Assembly: GCA_035389045.1 (NCBI GenBank)
Contig: DAOORA010000012.1
Coordinates: forward strand, 1 to 64,000
Source of the DNA: Bacteroidales bacterium
Lineage (GTDB): Bacteria; Bacteroidota; Bacteroidia; Bacteroidales; CAIWKO01
DNA: 64,000 nucleotides
Reading direction: 5' to 3'
Shown here: piece after piece, positions 3,901 to 20,571 of the stretch
How positions within the stretch are numbered: position 1 is the stretch's first letter
How the letters are laid out: every line of letters starts with the position of its first letter
Position numbers and translations under genes: made by a program
The notes under the pieces: model-generated
Database searches by the model: none
Seen by the model: the letters and a program-made list of their open reading frames with translations, nothing else
Told to the model about the DNA's origin: nothing

Positions 3901-5065
3901 AACCTATGCACAGCCTACCATTTCCATCGGTTGGGATGCTGCTTCTGCAACACTGGAGCCCATGAGAGGATATTGTATTAATTTTGGCGGTACCACAGGC
4001 GCTTTCACCACTGATATATCCGGAACAGTTAACACCGGAGCCATCAATTACAATGTAACAAACACTCCTTCAGGCAATGCCTGGGCTGATGGATGGAACC
4101 TGGTGGGCAACCCCTACCCTTCACCCATTGACTGGCAGGCGCCCTTAGGATGGACAAAGACAAATGTATACGACGGCATCTATTACTTTGAAGCAAACAC
4201 ACAATATTCAGGCACCTATAGATCATTTGTCAATGGATACGGAACAAATGGAGCAACAGGTATCATTCCTTCGATGCAGGGATTCTTTGTAAAAGCCACT
4301 GCCGGAGGAACACTGGGTGTAACGAATGATGTGAGGGTAAATTCTCAGCCACTGTTCTTTAAGTCGACCATAACTTCTGATCCAATACTGAGACTTAAGG
4401 GATATCCTGCTCAAAACAGCGCTCACGCTGATGAAACCGTCGTTTATTTCGATTCATTGGCCTCTTTTATGTTTGATGGGAATTATGACGCCTATAAAAT
4501 GATGAATAACGACCCTGCCTACCCCAATATTTATACAAGCGACAGTTCCCAGTCGGCTTTATCCATAAACGCACTGCCGCCGCTTTCAAACACCGATGTG
4601 ATTATTCCCCTGGGATTTATTACTAAAACCAGTGGTAACTTCACCATAGAGGCCACCGAGCTACTCAACTTCGACCCGTTATGGCATATTTATCTTGAAG
4701 ACAATCAGACAACAGTCATGCAGGACCTGACAGTAAACCCCCTATATACATTCTCCACTGTGGCAAACGCTCCGCAATACAGATTTTTCATCAGGTTCTC
4801 TCCCACTGTCATCACAGATATTGCTGAGCAAGGCAATTCATTTGCGGATACATGGTCGTCGGGCAAAAACATATATATCAGGTACAGCAGCACGAACATG
4901 CAACATGCTGTGATATCAATATTCAACATGCTCGGGCAAAAAATCATAAATGCTCAGCAGACTGTATCAGGTACTTCCTGTTACCCCATCGAAAAACCAG
5001 GATGTTACATTGTACATGTAACTGACGGGAATACCATTTTCCAGAAAAAAGTGATACTATTTTAG
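980..5065 (+). CDS. GloVer (Gloeo_Verruco)-type tandem-repeat surface protein with T9SS type A C-terminal domain
   Basis: Signal peptide; 14 copies of a ~53-aa GxxPxGxLxxxxNGxLYGMTxxGGxxxxGVLFEY repeat; WNLVGNPYPS module; C-terminal IFNMLGQ...GCYIV...KKVIL CTD. Confidence 0.85.
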   Translation: MKKIILLIVSMLGFTAYINAQPAGLWGMTYSGGNGGGVIFKTDNNGNNLQVVYSFIKNSGSSPSYIRLCEAANGKFYGMTNLGGAFDIGVLFEYDPATNTYTKKIDFSSNYNGRYPKGSLILASNGKLYGMTCQGGANYDGVMFEYDPATDTYTKKFDFLNTSKGCYPFGSLMQASNGKLYGMTYSGGSSGFGVMFEYDLTTNTYTKKHDFTGNSDGKNPYGSLMEASNGKLYGLTYKGGSSDYGIIFEFDPATSAYTIKHDLAVSGLVNGIYPYGEMIQASNGMLYGMTQRGGAGDLGVIFEYNPATNTYTKKTDFTGTLNGSYPYGSLMQAAGGMLYGMTSQGGTNGYGVLFEYDPATGTCTKKIDFLGTSNGRSPLGSLMQVTNGTIYGMTTQGGASNCGVLFEYNPATNTCTKKIELNVFLDGAYPYGPLMSASNGMLYGMACSGGINNAGVLFEYNPVTSTYTKKIDFAGTSNGRYPYGRLVQANNGMLYGMTNQGGSNDWGVLFEYNPVTNILTKKLDFTGTSNGKRPMGSMMKASNGKLYGTTTYGGTNDFGVLFEYDPSTNTFTKKHDFTDIPDGRSPYGSDVMQASNGVLYGTTYLGGSGYGIIFEYDPLNSTYTKKMDFSAAADGRNPYGTLVQTSGGLLYGMTCNGGASNYGVLFEYNPTNNSYIKKLDFVSSNGRNPHGSLLLASNGKLYGGTYQGGTIDAGVLFEYNTTASVYTKKHDFDGITGRYPSYGNLIEIITNYWTGTVSNNWDTPGNWSLGVVPGSTLDAEIPDVAPNPMPVVNSSGAACCRNITIDANASVTINSGKDLTVSGNWTNNGDSLTGIGTVCFTSSYTQKINGLTVFGNLIINNSGGVTLDSPVQVTGVLTPSLGTLSTNGNLTLVSTAAQTALIAGTGYGAVTGDVTMQRYMPDKLGYHYYSSPFSNAPVSGFTDELGTIISAYPYVGYDTTHTVTPFPNFYVYDETYAQPTISIGWDAASATLEPMRGYCINFGGTTGAFTTDISGTVNTGAINYNVTNTPSGNAWADGWNLVGNPYPSPIDWQAPLGWTKTNVYDGIYYFEANTQYSGTYRSFVNGYGTNGATGIIPSMQGFFVKATAGGTLGVTNDVRVNSQPLFFKSTITSDPILRLKGYPAQNSAHADETVVYFDSLASFMFDGNYDAYKMMNNDPAYPNIYTSDSSQSALSINALPPLSNTDVIIPLGFITKTSGNFTIEATELLNFDPLWHIYLEDNQTTVMQDLTVNPLYTFSTVANAPQYRFFIRFSPTVITDIAEQGNSFADTWSSGKNIYIRYSSTNMQHAVISIFNMLGQKIINAQQTVSGTSCYPIEKPGCYIVHVTDGNTIFQKKVILF
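1049..3215 (+). repeat. 14 intragenic ~156-162 bp tandem repeats (GloVer units)
   Basis: 14 (L/F/I)(Y/W)GxT/A motifs counted in the translation; TTTGAATAY and ACxAAAAAA recur in the DNA. Ends approximate. Confidence 0.85.
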
Positions 5066-13407: not shown

Positions 13408-14259
13408 TCAATGTTCACGAATGAGAATATAATCGAAAAAAGAGCCTACGTTAACCCACACATTCGTTGCATAATTACCCTGGGCATATACCCATATCTG
13501 AACGGCATGAGCGCCTGCAGACAGTCCGGTAAAATAGCCATTCATGGAAATAGACTGATATACACCTGAATGTGTCCACCATATCTGACCGGTTCCGACA
13601 GAAATTGTAGTAAAACTGTTAATTACTGTGGGGCCGGGTTGTCCGTCCACACGCAGTTCATAAGCCACGCAGCTGGTTCCTCCGGGAAAGGTCGCCATTA
13701 CATGGCCGTTGAAAAACATTTCGATAACGGATGAGGCACTGTTTTTTGTGAAGCTGCCAACCGTGCAAAGCTGGGTCCAGGTGCTGGACGGTAAATTTGC
13801 CAGGCCGGTTTGCGGTACATACAGTTGAGTGTACGTGGTCGGACTTTCGGTACCGGGAGGTCCTGCCGGCCCCGGGACGCCCTGCGGACCTTGCAGGCCC
13901 TGAGGCCCTTGCGGCCCTATAGCCTGAACCCAGACACTGTCGTTAAAATACCAGAAACCCACAGCCCCGCCCAACATCGAAGGATTGGCATTATATACCA
14001 GTAAGGAAGTGGCAGGATTGGGTACCGTTGTTACATCACTGACCGAAGTCAGCATTACCCTCGGTATTAAAATTCCTTTGGATGTACTGCTTACATCCAG
14101 CATGGCAGAACTGTCGGCAGCAGCTCCGGTTAAATTAACTGCTACGCCCTGCTGTGCATCAGCCGTTTTTGAATTCAACATACACAGTATGATCAGGGTA
14201 GGCATAAAAAGCCAGGATGCAGATTTCTGGAACATTCCAAATTTAATTTTCATAGACAA
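13408..14259 (-). CDS. Secreted protein with short collagen-like segment
   Basis: Signal peptide, SAMLDVSSTSKGILIPRV...LLVYN module common in Bacteroidota surface proteins, 7 GXY triplets, beta-rich C-terminal domain. Confidence 0.75.
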   Translation of the reverse strand: MSMKIKFGMFQKSASWLFMPTLIILCMLNSKTADAQQGVAVNLTGAAADSSAMLDVSSTSKGILIPRVMLTSVSDVTTVPNPATSLLVYNANPSMLGGAVGFWYFNDSVWVQAIGPQGPQGLQGPQGVPGPAGPPGTESPTTYTQLYVPQTGLANLPSSTWTQLCTVGSFTKNSASSVIEMFFNGHVMATFPGGTSCVAYELRVDGQPGPTVINSFTTISVGTGQIWWTHSGVYQSISMNGYFTGLSAGAHAVQIWVYAQGNYATNVWVNVGSFFDYILIREH

Positions 14260-14410: not shown

Positions 14411-14430
14411 TAAAAATACCGGTATTTTTA
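14411..14430. promoter_or_regulatory. Perfect 20-bp palindrome in divergent promoter region (candidate operator)
   Basis: TAAAAATACCGGTATTTTTA is its own reverse complement. Confidence 0.45.
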
Positions 14431-14657: not shown

Positions 14658-15329
14658 ATGAAGCAAATATTTACGTGGCTGTGTTGTATCACGATTATTT
14701 CGGTATTTGCGCAGACCAAACAGCTGGGTACTGACACCATCAGAATTAATGTCACTGTTGCACAAGCAAAAACGATGGTGGACACCAATGGAGTGAATCC
14801 TGATTTTGTTATTCTGGATGTACGTACACCCGCGGAATACTGTCCTTACCATATTGAGAATGCAATTAATATCAATTATTACGAAACAGATTTTCATGCC
14901 CAGATTGATGCACTTGATCATAACAAGATGTACCTTCTGCATTGTGCAGCGGGCAGCAGAAGCGGGCCTGCTTTCACCTATATGCAAAATGCACACTTCA
15001 GGGAAGTTTACCACATGTACAATGGAATAAATGAATGGATTTCAGCCCTCAATCCAACTGTTTCTTGTATTACAGCCGCGCAAAACATTAATAAAACGAA
15101 ACTGTATGAAATTTATCCGAATCCGGCCAGTGATTTTTTAAATATCAATTTTACATCAGAGACTCAGGGAAAATTATTTCTGTATGATATAAACGGGAAA
15201 GCCATCAGGGAGCAAGTTCTTGATCCCGGGTTCCGGCGCATGGATATCTCTGATATCCCGAAAGGAATGTATATCATAAAAATCCTGTCGGATAAAGATG
15301 TGTATACGGAAAAAATCACGATTCTTTAA
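14658..15329 (+). CDS. Rhodanese-like domain protein with T9SS type A CTD
   Basis: Signal peptide; ILDVRTPAEY..HIENAIN, HCAAGSRS active-site loop; IYPNPASD...YDINGK...KGMYII CTD. Confidence 0.88.
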   Translation: MKQIFTWLCCITIISVFAQTKQLGTDTIRINVTVAQAKTMVDTNGVNPDFVILDVRTPAEYCPYHIENAININYYETDFHAQIDALDHNKMYLLHCAAGSRSGPAFTYMQNAHFREVYHMYNGINEWISALNPTVSCITAAQNINKTKLYEIYPNPASDFLNINFTSETQGKLFLYDINGKAIREQVLDPGFRRMDISDIPKGMYIIKILSDKDVYTEKITIL

Positions 15330-15636: not shown

Positions 15637-16113
15637 TCATAACTTCTTCTGATAACGATAATATTGTATTGATAGTGCCAGCAATGTATAATCTTCTGCG
15701 CTGAACTTTTTTAAAGTGTAACCTAAGGCCTTTTCAAGTGCTGCAACAACAATATTTTTTGAATTATTAGATAAGCCATTGCATAGGTTGGCGAAAGTAT
15801 TTTTAATCGTGTTAAAAGCCAAGAATGGCTTGACATTAGAAATGTCGCTTTTAGTTGTTACTTGGGTGAATAAATAACCGGAATTTTTCAAAGAGAATAT
15901 GGAATGATCTCCATCGGTATAAAAAACATCAACAGTAACAATATTCCCACTTAGAGCACATTTACCTTTCAGGAACTTATTGGATGGATGTGCACATTTT
16001 GCCAGTGTTTTATATCCACTTTTATTAAAGAAATCACACACTTGAGCATTACCTATTAAATACACAAAACAAAATAAAACGAACAGAAAGAATTTTACTA
16101 TGGTTTTTTTTAT
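15637..16113 (-). CDS. Hypothetical secreted protein; natural start position reads ATA (16113), ORF track uses GTG 16065
   Basis: The frame is open upstream of 16065 and reads (I)KKTIVKFFLFVLFCFVYLIGNAQ, a complete signal peptide. Confidence 0.55.
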   Translation of the reverse strand: MKKTIVKFFLFVLFCFVYLIGNAQVCDFFNKSGYKTLAKCAHPSNKFLKGKCALSGNIVTVDVFYTDGDHSIFSLKNSGYLFTQVTTKSDISNVKPFLAFNTIKNTFANLCNGLSNNSKNIVVAALEKALGYTLKKFSAEDYTLLALSIQYYRYQKKL

Positions 16114-16115
16114 AA

Positions 16116-19100
16116 TTATTTACCCTCCACAATCCTGATCTCATCCTCCGTCAACCCATAAAGTTCATACACCATACGGTCAATCTCTTTATCGGTTTTT
16201 TCGATTTCGGATTTCAGGGTCTGGGCTTTTTGCTTTTCAAGTTCAAAATAACTAATCCATTCTGCTTGTTCATAAAGGGGGAGCTTAATCTTTTGCTTAT
16301 CAAGTTCTTTTATGAAGGCTTTGAAATCGAGGGATGGCCAGTCCTGTAATTTGTTTGTGATTTTTAGGGTGGCGAATTTTGAAGACAGGAGTTTTATGAA
16401 TTTTAATAAATGAGCATGCAACTCTTTTGTTTTTAATAGCATTATATCAACCTTGTCAACAAATAGTTTTTGGTCTTTTAAATCAATTGGTTTTATTGGA
16501 ATTCCTCTAACATCTGATAAAGATAATTGTGCAAAATCATCCTTAGTCGCAGTTGTCGAACCCCTAGTTTTTAAAAATGATACTAACTGAGAACACACGA
16601 TTGCCAAGACATATCGTATATCATAACCTGCATCCGTAAGTTTTAAGTTGTAGTAATCCTTTTTATTTACAAATTCTTCATTTACCAGATCAGCCATTAT
16701 CCTGAACTGACGACTGATGATTCTTCTAATTAATAAGCGATCTCCCTGAAAGTATCCAAAATCTTTTGGTTTTTCTTTAAGGTGTTCTCCATAATTAACC
16801 CAAATAAAATCATCTGTATGAATATATCTGTTAAGACTTCCAACGAAATACTTCTTATAGGTTGGAATGTATTCATTTGATACATCATTTTCGTTTGGTA
16901 GTATTCCACGAATAGACGATGAAACAGAACTCAGTGGAACTATATCCTTATTTACTTTGGATAGTAATTCATAAAACACGGGGGAAAGGACTATCCGCAG
17001 GGAAGACAGATTTTGCCAATAAGTACTCGGAAGTTCTTTAAAAGTGATGTCAGTAGTCAGGTCTCCATTGTACTTAGCACGTGTTGGAAAATCATAAACA
17101 AGTGTTGAATAAAACGGCTGAGTTCTTTTTCTTAGAACATAAACACCAGTATCGACATATGCATCTTCAAAAACATCATAAGGGAGCTTAATTGCAATTT
17201 CAAGAGTGCTGTTATTAGAAATGTAATCTCTAAGAAAAAAGTAATTCTCTCCACTCTGCCAGGACACTGGATTAATATAGGAGCAATACCCATTTTTCTT
17301 AATTAACTTAAATGCATGTTGAATAAAAGCACTATAAATATCAAAATTACCTTTATAGCATGTGTAATTAGCAAGTACAAATCTCTTTTCTTTTTCATTC
17401 AAAACAGCACCATACGGCGGATTCCCAATCACCACATCAAAACCACCTTTATATTCGGTGCGGAAGGCGTGTTCGATCGTACAGGTCATTTTATCTATGA
17501 AATGCTGCAAGCCCTTATTCTCATCCAGTATCACAAGGGGCTGCAGCCCCTTGTAGGATTCTACAGTGTCATTGGGCTCGGTGTTGGCTGCCCGGATATC
17601 AGCAAGGGGCTGCAGCCCCTTGCTGATATCCGGCAGATGATGCTTTTCCCGGTTGGTCCGAATGTATTTTATTGTGTTGTACAGTTGTTGTTGATCAGTA
17701 ATCTCAGTTTTGTGAAATTTCTGTTGCCACAAATGAAAGGTCTCGTCTTTGGCAATGGACTTGTATTCCTTGAACTTCTGCGCGGATTTTCCTTTCAGCT
17801 TTCGGACAATATTCGTCAACTCCTCTTCTTCGCATACCAATACGATATGAACATGGTCGTAACAAACATTAAATGCAAGGCAATTCAACAGATCCTCAGT
17901 TATTATATCACAAAAAATTTCGGCAATCTTTATCGAGTCTTCATCGTCAAAACATATGGAACGGTCAATATGCATCTCACCGTTTGCCCTGCGCTGCCGC
18001 ACCTTATAATCGATCATCCGCTGCGAGGTTCGTGTATCGTGGGTAGCAGTGGTAATGTGCCAGGCCTTCTTTTTCTTTTCCTTAAAAATATCCGGAAATT
18101 CTTTCTGCCAGTTAAACGCTTTAGCACCGGCAACAGAAGGATCATCAATGAGGGAGTTACCGCATTTGATATTGTTATTCAATGAAGTGAGTTTACGGCC
18201 ACGTTGTGCAGTACGCAGCCACAAGGATAAACGGGCGATTTCGACACTCTCTTCGTTGATGTCCACACCGAAAATATTCCTTTCGAGGATATGATTTTCA
18301 ACATCAGGGAAAACGAACGAACTTCCAAGCAACTGTGCCTGCAGTTCGTCAATGTATTGATGCTCTTCAATTAAAAACTCCAATGCCTGGTTCAGAAAAG
18401 CGCCGCTGCCACATGCAGGGTCACATATTGTAATGTTTAACAGCCATTCGCGGTATGCTTTTAATCGGTCGTCAAGTTCATGGAGTGTTGCTTTTTTGCG
18501 TTTACGGCGGTCTTTGGCATATTCTTCATCAATAATGCCGAGTTCTGCCTTTTTTTCTTTGCACAATTTGCCGAGGGTGTTTTCGACAATGTATTTGGTT
18601 ATATACCGGGGAGTATAGAAAATACCGTCTTTCTTGCGTTTGCTTTTACTTCTATCCGCTTCATGCCCTTCAATCTGTGCTTTTACATTTTCAACTTCGT
18701 TCAAACTATTTTCAAAAATATGCCCCAAAATATTGACATCAACCTCACTCTGGAAGTCGTATGTTGAAAGTTTCTTGGTGTGCTTTTGCAATACTTCATC
18801 ATCAATGCTGATGGTATCGAGAATTTCATCGGGTAAAAACAAACCCCCGTTGAAAGCAAAAATATCATCATTGTCGGTTTTCCCCTTCCTGCCAGTATTG
18901 ATATAACCAAAAAACTGCCTGAAAATGTCATAAAGCGGTTTGTAAGCATCTTCTTCTTTGAGCACCTGCCAGCGTTCGACCATACGGATAATAGAATTAG
19001 GGGGCAGCAAACCGCTGTCTTCGGCAAAGTATATGAACAGAAAGCGATCGAGGAGTTTCTGAGTTTTCTTAAATAAAGTCAATTGATCTGCATGAGGATT

Positions 19101-19745
19101 TTTCAGTACCATGTTTTGCCAAAGGTCTGTTCGGAAATTTGCGTAGTCCTTATAGAGGTATTTGGTGATATTCTCTTCTTCAAGTAGGCTTTCTTCCTTG
19201 ATCGAAGCCGGAATACCCATTAAAAGACAATCGGCGGCAAGGCATAACCAAAGAAGCTGAAACTCGTTTTCTGTCAGTGTAAAAAGATTAAATTCAAGTT
19301 GATCAACAGAATTATGAATATAGAACCGGATTTTTTCAAAGTTCGAGGTAATTACATAGATACAGTCCGTTTGGTTGTTCTTGTAATTAAAGGCCTGTTG
19401 GTTGATATTATCCAAATGCCGGGTGTCGGTTCCTTTAAGTTCGATAACAGCAATAGCTTTGCCAAGTGATAAAATTGCACCATCGGCTTTTTTGGAACCG
19501 GTAAGGTTCTTAAATTCAGTGGTGAGATTGAAATTCGGTTCGGGGTTGATAGTATAACCAAAGATGTTTACAAACAATTCCCGAAGGAAGCCCTCCTGAA
19601 ATTGTTCTTCTTTGGCATTGCGGATGTTGTTCTGGATTTCGGGATTATGAAAATATGCAGTGAATTTTTTATAGGCAGACTGAACAAGACCAGCATTAAG
19701 GGTTTTGAGGTATCTGTTGATGACAGCGTTCTGAAAAAATGACAT
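16116..19745 (-). CDS. Type IIG (Eco57I-like) restriction-modification enzyme with in-frame Y1-transposase insert
   Basis: N-terminal ADG...IELK nuclease motif, FNGGLF, GIFYTP, DPACGSGAFL (motif I), GVDIN, GFDVVIGNPPY (motif IV), TaqI_C-like TRD, IDRMVYELYGLTEDEI C-terminus. Confidence 0.92.
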   Translation of the reverse strand: MSFFQNAVINRYLKTLNAGLVQSAYKKFTAYFHNPEIQNNIRNAKEEQFQEGFLRELFVNIFGYTINPEPNFNLTTEFKNLTGSKKADGAILSLGKAIAVIELKGTDTRHLDNINQQAFNYKNNQTDCIYVITSNFEKIRFYIHNSVDQLEFNLFTLTENEFQLLWLCLAADCLLMGIPASIKEESLLEEENITKYLYKDYANFRTDLWQNMVLKNPHADQLTLFKKTQKLLDRFLFIYFAEDSGLLPPNSIIRMVERWQVLKEEDAYKPLYDIFRQFFGYINTGRKGKTDNDDIFAFNGGLFLPDEILDTISIDDEVLQKHTKKLSTYDFQSEVDVNILGHIFENSLNEVENVKAQIEGHEADRSKSKRKKDGIFYTPRYITKYIVENTLGKLCKEKKAELGIIDEEYAKDRRKRKKATLHELDDRLKAYREWLLNITICDPACGSGAFLNQALEFLIEEHQYIDELQAQLLGSSFVFPDVENHILERNIFGVDINEESVEIARLSLWLRTAQRGRKLTSLNNNIKCGNSLIDDPSVAGAKAFNWQKEFPDIFKEKKKKAWHITTATHDTRTSQRMIDYKVRQRRANGEMHIDRSICFDDEDSIKIAEIFCDIITEDLLNCLAFNVCYDHVHIVLVCEEEELTNIVRKLKGKSAQKFKEYKSIAKDETFHLWQQKFHKTEITDQQQLYNTIKYIRTNREKHHLPDISKGLQPLADIRAANTEPNDTVESYKGLQPLVILDENKGLQHFIDKMTCTIEHAFRTEYKGGFDVVIGNPPYGAVLNEKEKRFVLANYTCYKGNFDIYSAFIQHAFKLIKKNGYCSYINPVSWQSGENYFFLRDYISNNSTLEIAIKLPYDVFEDAYVDTGVYVLRKRTQPFYSTLVYDFPTRAKYNGDLTTDITFKELPSTYWQNLSSLRIVLSPVFYELLSKVNKDIVPLSSVSSSIRGILPNENDVSNEYIPTYKKYFVGSLNRYIHTDDFIWVNYGEHLKEKPKDFGYFQGDRLLIRRIISRQFRIMADLVNEEFVNKKDYYNLKLTDAGYDIRYVLAIVCSQLVSFLKTRGSTTATKDDFAQLSLSDVRGIPIKPIDLKDQKLFVDKVDIMLLKTKELHAHLLKFIKLLSSKFATLKITNKLQDWPSLDFKAFIKELDKQKIKLPLYEQAEWISYFELEKQKAQTLKSEIEKTDKEIDRMVYELYGLTEDEIRIVEGK
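17533..17554. repeat. Perfect 22-bp REP-like palindrome
   Basis: ACAAGGGGCTGCAGCCCCTTGT. Confidence 0.9.
17592..17633. repeat. Perfect 42-bp palindrome with the same REP-like core
   Basis: CCGGATATCAGCAAGGGGCTG|CAGCCCCTTGCTGATATCCGG. Confidence 0.92.
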
Positions 19746-19872
19746 AATTATGCATATAATAATGCATAAAAATATAAATTATTTGTCAGATAGGAGAAAA
19801 AAGAAAGAGATTTTATCAGAACAAAAGTATATATTGAAATTCTTATTATTAAATTAATAATCAAAATATTAA

Positions 19873-20571
19873 TCACTTTTTCTTGTTCATCACAGCAGCC
19901 ACAGCAAGTATTATCCCTAAAACGATACCCAGTATGGCTGCAAAAAGCACCTGGAAATGTGCAGGCAGCAGGAACGTAATGGTGTGTGCCGGAAACCAGA
20001 AAAGAGGTATGGTTTTTTTGTAAACGAAGTTCCATTGAACGTCCCAGTTAATACCCGAAAATATTTTTGCAAAAGGTATGGGCGTAACAAGCGACTTTAA
20101 ACTCCCGTGGTTCATGGCAATATGAGTATCTGTGATCTTGTGAAAGGTCATCATCACCGGGGCATAAGCCATATTAAGACAGACACTGATACAGAAGGCC
20201 GATAATAATTTCAATCCGCTGAAGGAACCTTTCATGGCATCTAAAGCGCCCTCTGCACCAAAATATTTTTCAAGACAAACCGGTGTCCCGGTAGAGAATA
20301 TTTTAAATGCTATGGCAATGGTGGCTCCCAGCAAAGCCCATACTACGGCCCGTGGAATAATACCGAAACCTTTCTCAAAATACCTCCCGGTCTTGATACG
20401 CAGCCCTATAAGCTCGCCTGTGGTGGCCAGGATGCTGAATTTAAGCATAGCCAGCAGAATGGGCTGTGCCGTATTTGCTTCAATATAAAATTTATACAAG
20501 GCAGGAAAAACAACAAATGGCAGAAACAGGGCTGCCAGGAACAAAATCATGTACAGGTCTTTGATTTTCAT
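19873..20571 (-). CDS. Multi-pass membrane protein, Mpv17/PMP22-like
   Basis: Several hydrophobic helices; FWFPAHTITFLLPAHFQVLFAA resembles the Mpv17/PMP22 C-terminal motif. Confidence 0.6.
   Translation of the reverse strand: MKIKDLYMILFLAALFLPFVVFPALYKFYIEANTAQPILLAMLKFSILATTGELIGLRIKTGRYFEKGFGIIPRAVVWALLGATIAIAFKIFSTGTPVCLEKYFGAEGALDAMKGSFSGLKLLSAFCISVCLNMAYAPVMMTFHKITDTHIAMNHGSLKSLVTPIPFAKIFSGINWDVQWNFVYKKTIPLFWFPAHTITFLLPAHFQVLFAAILGIVLGIILAVAAVMNKKK

Follow-up and report, generated by a model that had tools for sequence, protein, structure and literature searches.

The closest described counterparts of the locus reported here are the RAYT (TnpA_REP) proteins, Y1/HUH enzymes associated with repetitive extragenic palindromes (REPs), and the transposases of IS200/IS605 elements such as IS608 and ISDra2. 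Such hairpins can also be translated—in subclass 2.4 of the TnpA_REP genes, the gene itself contains in-frame REPs, for the most part in the HuH-to-Y interval (Quentin et al. 2018, PMC6006769), and intragenic REPs as well as in-frame Rickettsia palindromic elements have been described (Di Nocera et al. 2013, PMC3733652); each paper is drawn on in part, here and below. In this report we describe a gene in the window, by which we mean the whole 64,000-nucleotide (nt) stretch analysed (positions 1 to 64,000 of contig DAOORA010000012.1, from a Bacteroidales bacterium): a predicted type IIG restriction-modification gene that contains a Y1/HUH domain in frame and, 3' of the presumed catalytic Tyr codon, perfect palindromes that are translated with it. 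Our reading is that these palindromes are REP-like DNA hairpins belonging to a Y1/HUH (IS200/RAYT-like) element, which would itself be translated as an internal domain of the type IIG protein; judged from the sequence, we put the probability of this at roughly 58%. The core idea has a precedent, as in-frame REPs within RAYT genes and within other genes are already published. A first-pass annotation of this DNA, which had RAYT hairpins normally lying outside the gene, overlooks the in-frame REPs that PMC6006769, in the part used here, places within tnpA_REP genes.

Perfect palindromes with arms of at least 8 nt number just three in the window, and two of them lie in this gene (Table 1); the third is AT-rich and lies at 14411-14430. 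The longer of the two, of 42 nt, consists of 21-nt arms (17592-17612 and 17613-17633) that are 100% complementary with a 0-nt spacer, and the 22-nt palindrome has the same 20-nt core—the 20-mer CAAGGGGCTGCAGCCCCTTG is identical at 17534-17553 and 17603-17622, and the outer arms of the 42-mer are absent from the 22-mer. Both are codon-aligned, placing KGLQPL at residues 709 and 732 of the minus-strand open reading frame (ORF), and the plus-strand frame yields identical palindrome peptides, with DISKGLQPLADIR and KGLQPLV present in both translations. A third unit, NKGLQH (residue 744; 17502-17516), has decayed; the slot that it fills lies 28-31 residues before NPPY and holds a perfect palindrome in many relatives. 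In all of this the first-pass annotation was accurate: the two perfect palindromes and their common core, the decayed unit, the position of all three units beyond the codon of Y694, and the single peptide read from both strands of the codon-aligned 42-mer are as it described them. A 289-aa open frame opposite the Y1 insert (17316-18185, plus strand) reads the same palindrome peptides.

Palindromes of this kind are scarce in the window's genome, where perfect ones of at least 20 nt with a GC content of at least 0.4 number 16 in the whole 4.46 Mb. Folded as single-stranded DNA, the 156-nt palindrome stretch reaches -40.1 kcal/mol, against -22.2 +/- 3.0 for shuffles (z = -6.0; 0 of 200 shuffles equal it). 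In an AlphaFold (AF2) model of the insert, which has a mean pLDDT (predicted local distance difference test) of 84 and a confident core at insert residues 1-150, the stretch encoded by the palindrome array (residues 151-190) has a pLDDT of 51-60 and no secondary structure, and is followed by a confident helix at 191-205. This modelled, low-confidence stretch fits the idea that in-frame units survive in tolerant stretches only; the units had been called stop-free and frame-preserving, and stop-free they are.

The host ORF matches the Pfam profiles MmeI_hel (residues 227-303), MmeI_Mtase (425-551), Eco57I (8e-38), N6_Mtase and TaqI_C (982-1084), the Eco57I match being broken into two stretches by a Y1_Tnp domain. 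The hallmarks of a type IIG enzyme of the Eco57I/MmeI kind appear together on one polypeptide of 1209 aa: a putative PD-(D/E)xK nuclease (D...ELK), DPACGSG, NPPYG and a C-terminal recognition domain. By GC content at third codon positions the gene is a mosaic, with 54.5% in the insert, 42.7% in the N-terminal host part and 29.3% in the C-terminal recognition part. The insert itself, E556-Y765, is 630 nt long and sits exactly between two codons, between methylase motifs III and IV. It is a clean indel relative to the insert-free gene P0265, which is 88% identical in its N-terminal part and has the same recognition domain; insert-free genes read EFPxVF-x-K-GGFDVVIGNPPY at this place, and occupied genes read EFPxxF-x-[EKxKKAWHIT...AFRTEY]-K-GGFD. 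No start or stop codon belongs to the insert and no Met stands at its beginning, and over its full length it is colinear with stand-alone proteins in the protein library, which have 148-195 aa; it contains about 35 residues more than their consensus. Two other in-frame inserts, unrelated and without Y1, occupy the same EFPxVF/GGFD loop in L090 and L019 (71 and 42 residues).

Y1_Tnp (PF01797, IS200-like) is matched at residues 595-697 with 46.3 bits, where the cut-off is 23 (E = 5.4e-12), the best sequence match in the PDB is ISDra2 TnpA (E = 1.4e-3) with the Tyr aligned, and in a 45-row alignment the first HUH His (H76), Y139 and seven further residues are invariant, H78 being nearly so. The modelled fold points the same way: the 25 best chains found by Foldseek are all Y1 transposases, with target-normalised template modelling (TM) scores of 0.52-0.67, and the predicted fold is matched first by 4er8, the E. 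coli RAYT-REP hairpin complex, with ISDra2 and IS608 also among the top matches. With IS200/IS605 elements (IS608, ISDra2) the insert shares the Y1/HUH fold and motifs, a subterminal hairpin at a fixed distance from one end (the hairpin slot is on the right side only, 28-31 codons from the right junction), and a clean indel with no target duplication visible at the junctions, as expected of seamless insertion and excision. Unlike them, it has no start or stop of its own, is single-copy, gives no hairpin signal at a second end, has no conserved tetranucleotide on its 5' side (none in the junction comparison, where the 5' codon is variable), and is present without tnpB.

Comparison across relatives places the palindromes with the insert. 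From genomes and metagenomes we gathered 94 loci and excluded 7 of them—L010 for want of motif I, L026, L029 and L044 (no in-frame NPPY, at contig ends), and the duplicates L037, L049 and L052—so that 87 distinct loci were counted, again for perfect palindromes with arms of at least 8 nt. Among 35 insert-bearing loci, chosen for a motif IV that shares the frame of motif I, 32 have a palindrome in the ORF; there are 70 such palindromes in 117.7 kb of ORFs, 64 of them with a GC content of at least 0.4, against 2-4 in 123 kb of flanks. Among 50 insert-free loci, 3 have an ORF palindrome, AT-rich in each case, and none reaches a GC content of 0.3 in 146.8 kb, with 1-5 in 206 kb of flanks. Two loci with another insert at the same site contribute one palindrome in 6.6 kb, in L090, and none in 13.8 kb of flanks. 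Perfect copies predominate: sites scored in 20-nt windows number 62 (perfect), 34 (one mismatch) and 23 (two mismatches) in insert-bearing ORFs and 0, 2 and 16 in insert-free ORFs.

Within the insert-bearing genes, the 64 GC-rich copies are distributed between the HUH motif and the Tyr (23), the tail after the Tyr (21), the N-terminal host part (13) and the C-terminal host part (7), and the commonest place is the slot 28-31 residues before NPPY. Hairpins recur at domain junctions, namely in the nuclease loop, ahead of the methylase domain and beyond the recognition domain. The 23 copies between HUH and Tyr recall subclass 2.4, which has Bacteroidetes among its hosts (PMC6006769, in the part used here). 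The members of that subclass are described there as stand-alone, REP-flanked genes with NH[IFV]H and YIxNNP, where the Y1 insert has DH[VLMA]H and YI..NR.KH; unlike them, the insert sits inside a type IIG gene, has ISDra2 TnpA as its best PDB match and appears to seed palindromes into the host part. A word search of PMC6006769 for 'methyl', 'restriction', 'Eco57' and 'fused' found no occurrence.

The wider RAYT/TnpA_REP system (E. coli, 4er8) is likewise similar in combining a single-copy Y1/HUH protein with short GC-rich hairpins whose type goes with the protein lineage. It differs in several ways: the Y1 described here is not encoded by a separate gene but forms an internal part of a restriction enzyme; its hairpins belong to the coding sequence instead of lying beside the gene; most genomes have 1-6 copies rather than hundreds, with dispersal to 34 in genome G069 and 5 extra in G001; and palindromy is perfect, the centres being self-complementary and the stems ending in ACAA...TTGT or CAA...TTG. 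The GTAG/CGTC tag that Di Nocera et al. (2013, PMC3733652, in the part used here) give for the foot of the REP stem is not present on them. The Rickettsia elements and intragenic REPs of the same source are comparable as short palindromes in frame in genes, presumably tolerated in loops; those, however, are scattered through numerous unrelated genes within a single genome, whereas the palindromes described here are confined to the gene that encodes the candidate enzyme. In the literature searched, which excluded subscription journals and supplements, we found no paper with the palindrome sequence, with KGLQPL, or with Y1_Tnp/PF01797 together with Eco57I/PF07669/MmeI, nor a Y1 element in frame at a fixed site of a restriction gene; the supplements of PMC6006769 and PMC3733652 lie outside this scope and may bear on it.

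What is conserved in these units is DNA symmetry and not KGLQPL, because the arms change symmetrically and two frames are used with different peptides. Palindromes are alike within one gene, whereas those of different lineages have diverged on both arms; their stems fit CAA[G/T]GGG...CCC[C/A]TTG, which is common across phyla, and the centres are as varied as CTGCAG, TTGCAA, GCATGC, ACATGT, ATTAAT, TTTAAA, CTTAAG and GTTAAC, with every palindrome perfect. The central 4 nt are self-complementary in all 64 GC-rich copies (TTAA 32, TGCA 15, CATG 15, ATAT 2). The encoded peptides vary (KGLQPL, NGLQPI, KGINPL, KGACPL, RGHAPL), and a KGLQPL-like peptide is present somewhere in 46 of the best 120 proteins. 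As to frame, codon alignment holds for 37 of the 64 copies and a 2-nt shift for 26; the only copy shifted by 1 nt does not belong to the family, and a one-base shift would hit a stop codon in 37 of the 64. Codon alignment, a feature that the first-pass annotation had noted, holds in the window and is one of two frames across the family.

These data bear on the view that selection acts on KGLQPL as a protein motif or linker repeat, with the DNA palindromy incidental, which we find barely credible. The slot 28-31 residues before NPPY does keep an NK-x-LQ-x-[LI] flavour even where the DNA palindrome has ceased to be perfect, and the NK-x-LQ slot is conserved in stand-alone proteins as well. Against this, a single 20-mer is read in two frames in L009, as RGHAPL and as KGACPL, symmetry remains perfect although the peptides change, the model gives the encoded stretch low confidence and no secondary structure, and the same core is found between genes elsewhere. 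The data on frame and covariation contradict KGLQPL as a protein motif, and we reject it.

The type of a palindrome agrees more closely with its Y1 clade than with its host clade. Over 27 rows, the class defined by the central 4 nt requires 5 changes on the Y1 tree, 8 on the host tree and about 13 with shuffled labels; for the central 6 nt the corresponding numbers are 9, 14 and about 17. Host-part copies are more telling than copies within the insert, because most copies are linked in the insert and the histories of host and insert are discordant. For 21 of the 23 host-part palindromes, the insert of the same gene contains a palindrome with identical central 6 nt, and the same type is found at sites more than 2 kb apart in one gene. 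The N-terminal hot spot is the nuclease loop between D and ELK, where L034 has 18 nt more than the insert-free L070—an in-frame palindromic indel. The same hot spot has three 21-nt tandem units in L027, each beginning at a palindrome centre, and a 38-nt palindrome in L086 in which host flank, copied in inverted form, extends the core.

Local changes of this sort could also be produced by passive passengers, that is, by hairpin-templated repair or template switching (quasi-palindrome correction), with spread by slippage and recombination and no sequence-specific enzyme. Perfect palindromy that includes the central 4 nt in 64 of 64 GC-rich copies speaks for such a model, as do the unique outer arms of the long palindromes, which resemble inverted local flank (42 nt in the window, 38 nt in L086, 44 nt in L069), and the tandem half-units in L027 and L080. 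It leaves unexplained why phyla share the CAA[G/T]GGG stem, why the palindromes are restricted to alleles with Y1, and the recurrence of one type at sites more than 2 kb apart, and we consider it improbable. In L020, L023 and L027, a poly-Glu/Asn tract between two Y1-core palindromes differs in length among near-identical genes; the sequences suggest slippage next to hairpins as the source of this length change.

The distribution of the core in whole genomes is more mixed. In the window's genome, the 18-nt core with at most 2 mismatches is found at 2 places in 4,463,346 bases (reversed control, 0), both in the type IIG gene. The first-pass annotation had made the motif's genome-wide count and its association with Y1 domains the check on its reading, and had seen in-frame hairpins of a Y1 element: the tie of the DNA elements to Y1 is borne out (32 of 35 insert-bearing loci against 0 of 50), whereas repetitiveness in the window's genome is not, the motif being unique to this gene there but associated with Y1 in relatives. 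A degenerate pattern has 8, 1, 3, 2 and 3 copies in five gene-carrying genomes. In G000 (the window's genome), G002, G004 and G005 all core copies are within Y1-bearing type IIG genes, the third copy of G005 sitting in a second such gene; G001, which carries a Y1-bearing gene, has 5 extra copies in intergenic DNA.

Among 401 Bacteroidota genomes the core pattern is found in 16, of which 3 have non-palindromic centres, and the reversed control pattern in 8; it is present in 5 of 7 genomes with a Y1-bearing gene against 11 of 394 without. Many-copy genomes are G143 (48 copies, 41 perfect), G069 (34), G145 (8), G302 (7) and G201 (5), of which G069 carries a Y1-bearing gene. The copies inspected in G143 (15) and G069 (14) lie outside long frames, with best open frames of 69-327 nt, and are the centres of longer, genome-specific inverted repeats—in some genomes, the core acts in a REP-like or MITE-like manner (MITE, miniature inverted-repeat transposable element). 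Because the core is dispersed without a detected Y1 gene in some genomes, the tie to Y1 is strong but not exclusive.

Such dispersal is what would be expected if the palindromes were independent REP/MITE-type elements, moved by another enzyme or by replication errors and gathering in a tolerant insert without involvement of Y1. The 48, 8, 7 and 5 copies in G143, G145, G302 and G201, where our query detected no Y1-bearing gene, and the intergenic position of dispersed copies at the centres of longer inverted repeats are in its favour. It has more difficulty with the 50 insert-free alleles, which have no GC-rich palindromes even in the host loops that are decorated in insert-bearing alleles, with the match between host-part copies and the resident insert type (21 of 23), and with the window's genome, whose sole 2 core copies lie within this type IIG gene. 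We rate this explanation as quite unlikely.

The window's genome also contains another family of perfect palindromes, based on CCGCCAGCTGGCGG, at G000:C8:82664-82687, C34:22118-22137 and C104:4441-4470. A weak Y1 match (G000:C8:85709-86050) lies about 3 kb from one of these, and the CCGCCAGCTGGCGG palindrome adjoins Y1_Tnp fragments in G069 (L112 587-602, L117 814-829). These palindromes and their Y1 may be a classical RAYT/REP pair.

Several observations weigh against the view that the hairpins belong to the Y1 element. Three of the 35 insert-bearing loci (L008, L062, L066) have no perfect palindrome; L090 has one family palindrome in its N-terminal part and yet no Y1; and in L034 and L035, HIY replaces HUH and the palindromes are still present. 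Part of the tracking of Y1 clades is plain co-inheritance, the palindromes within the insert being physically linked to Y1. In G143, G145, G302 and G201, where the core is dispersed, the insert query finds no match at E <= 0.001, and no core palindrome lies within about 1.5 kb of their stand-alone PF01797 genes, which are of other subfamilies. There is no sign of a left-end hairpin, mean 50-nt folding energies over the first 150 nt of the insert being equal to those of shuffles in 30 loci. Finally, no joint that skips the insert (17451-18080) was found in Logan contigs of four of the seven public runs that matched, which cover the region searched (16000-19900) at low, patchy depth.

The Y1-bearing genes are widespread and patchy. 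Searching proteins of 664-2116 aa with the insert gave 179 matches at E <= 0.001 from 465 candidates, and all of the best 120 of the 179 contain PF01797 and PF07669 together. Their sources include Bacteroidales, Flavobacteriaceae, Prolixibacteraceae, Balneolaceae, Calditrichales, Chlorobi, Neomarinimicrobiota and Fidelibacterota, and most insert-bearing type IIG genes are full length (1150-1370 aa). Several full-length restriction-modification proteins carry the database name 'transposase' or 'REP element-mobilizing transposase RayT', names that fit the insert alone; one protein of the set is named for Confluentibacter flavum, which points to an isolate among the carriers. The N-terminal 555 residues, used as a query, have thousands of relatives; the best 120 are 68-100% identical, and those with PF01797 (about 35) are interleaved with those without it. 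Among the 401 Bacteroidota genomes, 7 carry the Y1 domain in frames of 1197-1273 aa; there is one insert copy in the window's genome and in each of 6 others, a second type IIG gene of G005 also has a Y1 domain, and a profile of 20 sequences exceeds 100 bits only for 7 type IIG copies, the next best score being 53 bits. No tblastn match to the insert was found at E <= 1e-5 in 72,556 plasmid and 50,697 phage records. Weaker profile matches occur in frames of 1288-1376 aa (G122:C1:142122-142418, G299:C10:14004-14396, G211:C1:333065-333427) and, as another group that forms one family, in frames of about 320-350 aa; these matches may be further Y1 fusions.

The insert and its host gene differ in history. 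For the host part adjoining the site, a tree of 83 rows (29 insert-bearing, 54 insert-free) demands no fewer than 16 changes of insert state, of which starred branches force 9, and the approximately unbiased (AU) test rejects a single clade of insert-bearing alleles (log-likelihood difference 1014, p-AU 2.5e-56). Since recombination within the host gene would violate the tree model, this rejection is evidence of repeated insert events rather than of their mechanism. Pairwise identity of host part and Y1 core is uncorrelated (Spearman -0.01, 406 pairs, 29 rows); in L068 and L069, for example, the hosts are 95% and the inserts 65% identical, and in L006 and L007 the hosts are 64% and the inserts 76% identical. 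The whole 630-nt insert may move either by Y1 chemistry or by recombination between alleles. By analogy, the insert may be likened to an intein or homing endonuclease: it is in frame, patchy, fixed at one site by a conserved catalytic motif, and discordant in history with its host. Unlike inteins, it shows no splicing motifs and would apparently be kept once the protein is mature; the enzyme that it encodes is of the single-strand Y1 nuclease type. The excluded locus L010, with a 222-aa Y1 ORF (3950-4618, plus strand) that ends at ...AFRTEY, was considered as proof of the element's ends and rejected, as decayed, host-like DNA (KGGFDVV..NPP) follows. This ORF sits between a TPR-protein gene and a lipoate-ligase-like gene, and by its sequence may be a type IIG relic or a copy moved with some flank.

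Such a pattern must also be set against domestication, in which Y1 and hairpins would serve the restriction enzyme in a non-selfish role. They might switch or diversify the gene through excision, deletion or rearrangement between its internal hairpins, nick single strands, or provide a self-regulating binding site. An unbroken host-insert-host frame in the 35 loci (which were selected for motif IV in the frame of motif I), most of them full length, would fit such a role, as would the conserved Y1 catalytic residues, the repeated placement of hairpins at domain junctions and the single insert copy per genome. The patchiness of the insert among near-identical host alleles, with at least 16 changes and monophyly rejected, is a better fit to a dispensable passenger; moreover, spare hairpin-flanked cassettes were not seen within 4-5 kb, nor was a rearranged or insert-free form in the contigs of the four public runs. 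On balance we hold domestication to be unlikely. Contigs from two RNA libraries cover 17655-17863, 17897-18047 and 18059-18209 without differences, which is no proof of transcription.

If the hairpins do belong to the Y1 element, the following mechanism can be proposed. The element would occupy, in frame, a single codon boundary within the loop that precedes methylase motif IV, and its Y1 domain would recognise the hairpin that either strand of a palindrome may form on single-stranded DNA, a perfect palindrome giving an identical hairpin on both strands. By cutting and rejoining near the hairpin, the domain could copy or move short units locally, which may have spread within the insert (between HUH and Tyr and after the Tyr) and later to loops in the host part. 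Selection would spare a copy only if it leaves the frame open and falls in a tolerant loop, and KGLQPL would be a by-product of one of two usable frames. As a guess, local spread may be owed to the nascent domain acting near its own gene as this is transcribed. Binding and cleavage of the hairpins by Y1, on which their role as a substrate depends, are what we infer from sequence.

A larger proposal, possible but doubtful in our view, is that an IS200-like Y1 has become a translated 'parasitic domain': with no promoter, start or stop and with its own history, it would occupy one boundary by motif IV across Bacteroidota and allied phyla and seed 18-24-nt hairpin substrates in frame through its own gene, perhaps via the nascent domain on the single-stranded DNA of the transcribed gene. 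If so, the restriction gene would be a self-mutating locus whose passenger remodels loops and domain junctions. Should the Y1 domain indeed handle the hairpins, the locus would offer a compact natural pair—a single-strand nuclease and its 20-nt substrate in one reading frame—and the centre types, of which there are at least 8, would be natural specificity variants useful for learning how HUH enzymes read hairpins. It would also mean that a transposase can persist inside a defence protein, and that tiny palindromes can remodel the loops of a restriction enzyme. If Y1 does not handle them, the genes are still a clean case of in-frame REP-like insertions. There is value for annotation too, as the names 'transposase' and 'RayT' stand on full restriction-modification enzymes.

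Table 1. Coordinates of the features discussed, in positions of the window.
Feature	Positions	Strand	Evidence
Type IIG gene (predicted): nuclease, helical spacer, gamma-class N6-adenine methylase, TaqI_C-like recognition domain	16116..19745	-	ORF and Pfam
Methylase motif I (DPACGSG)	18402..18422	-	sequence read
In-frame insert, colinear with stand-alone Y1 proteins, between the codons that separate F and GGFD in insert-free genes	17451..18080	-	alignment with P0265, junctions
Y1/HUH catalytic core, AWHITT to YIRTN	17652..18065	-	Pfam Y1_Tnp, ISDra2 TnpA match, AF2, Foldseek
HUH motif HVHIV (H631, H633)	17841..17855	-	sequence read, 45-row alignment
Codon of presumed catalytic Tyr Y694	17664..17666	-	aligned with ISDra2 TnpA Tyr helix
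42-nt perfect palindrome, encodes PDISKGLQPLADIR on either strand	17592..17633	.	inverted-repeat search, translations, folding
22-nt perfect palindrome, same 20-nt core, encodes YKGLQPLV	17533..17554	.	repeat and palindrome searches
Decayed palindrome NKGLQH, conserved subterminal slot 31 residues before NPPY	17502..17519	.	sequence, relatives' alignment
Host sequence directly after the insert, GGFDVVIGNPPYG (methylase motif IV)	17409..17447	-	sequence read, junction alignment

Two neighbouring ORFs complete the local picture. The first (13408-14259, minus strand) encodes a protein with a collagen-like GPQG repeat, and the second (14658-15329, plus strand) a rhodanese-like protein, with the AT-rich palindrome of the window lying between them. 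The C-terminus of the rhodanese-like protein looks like a type IX secretion sorting domain.

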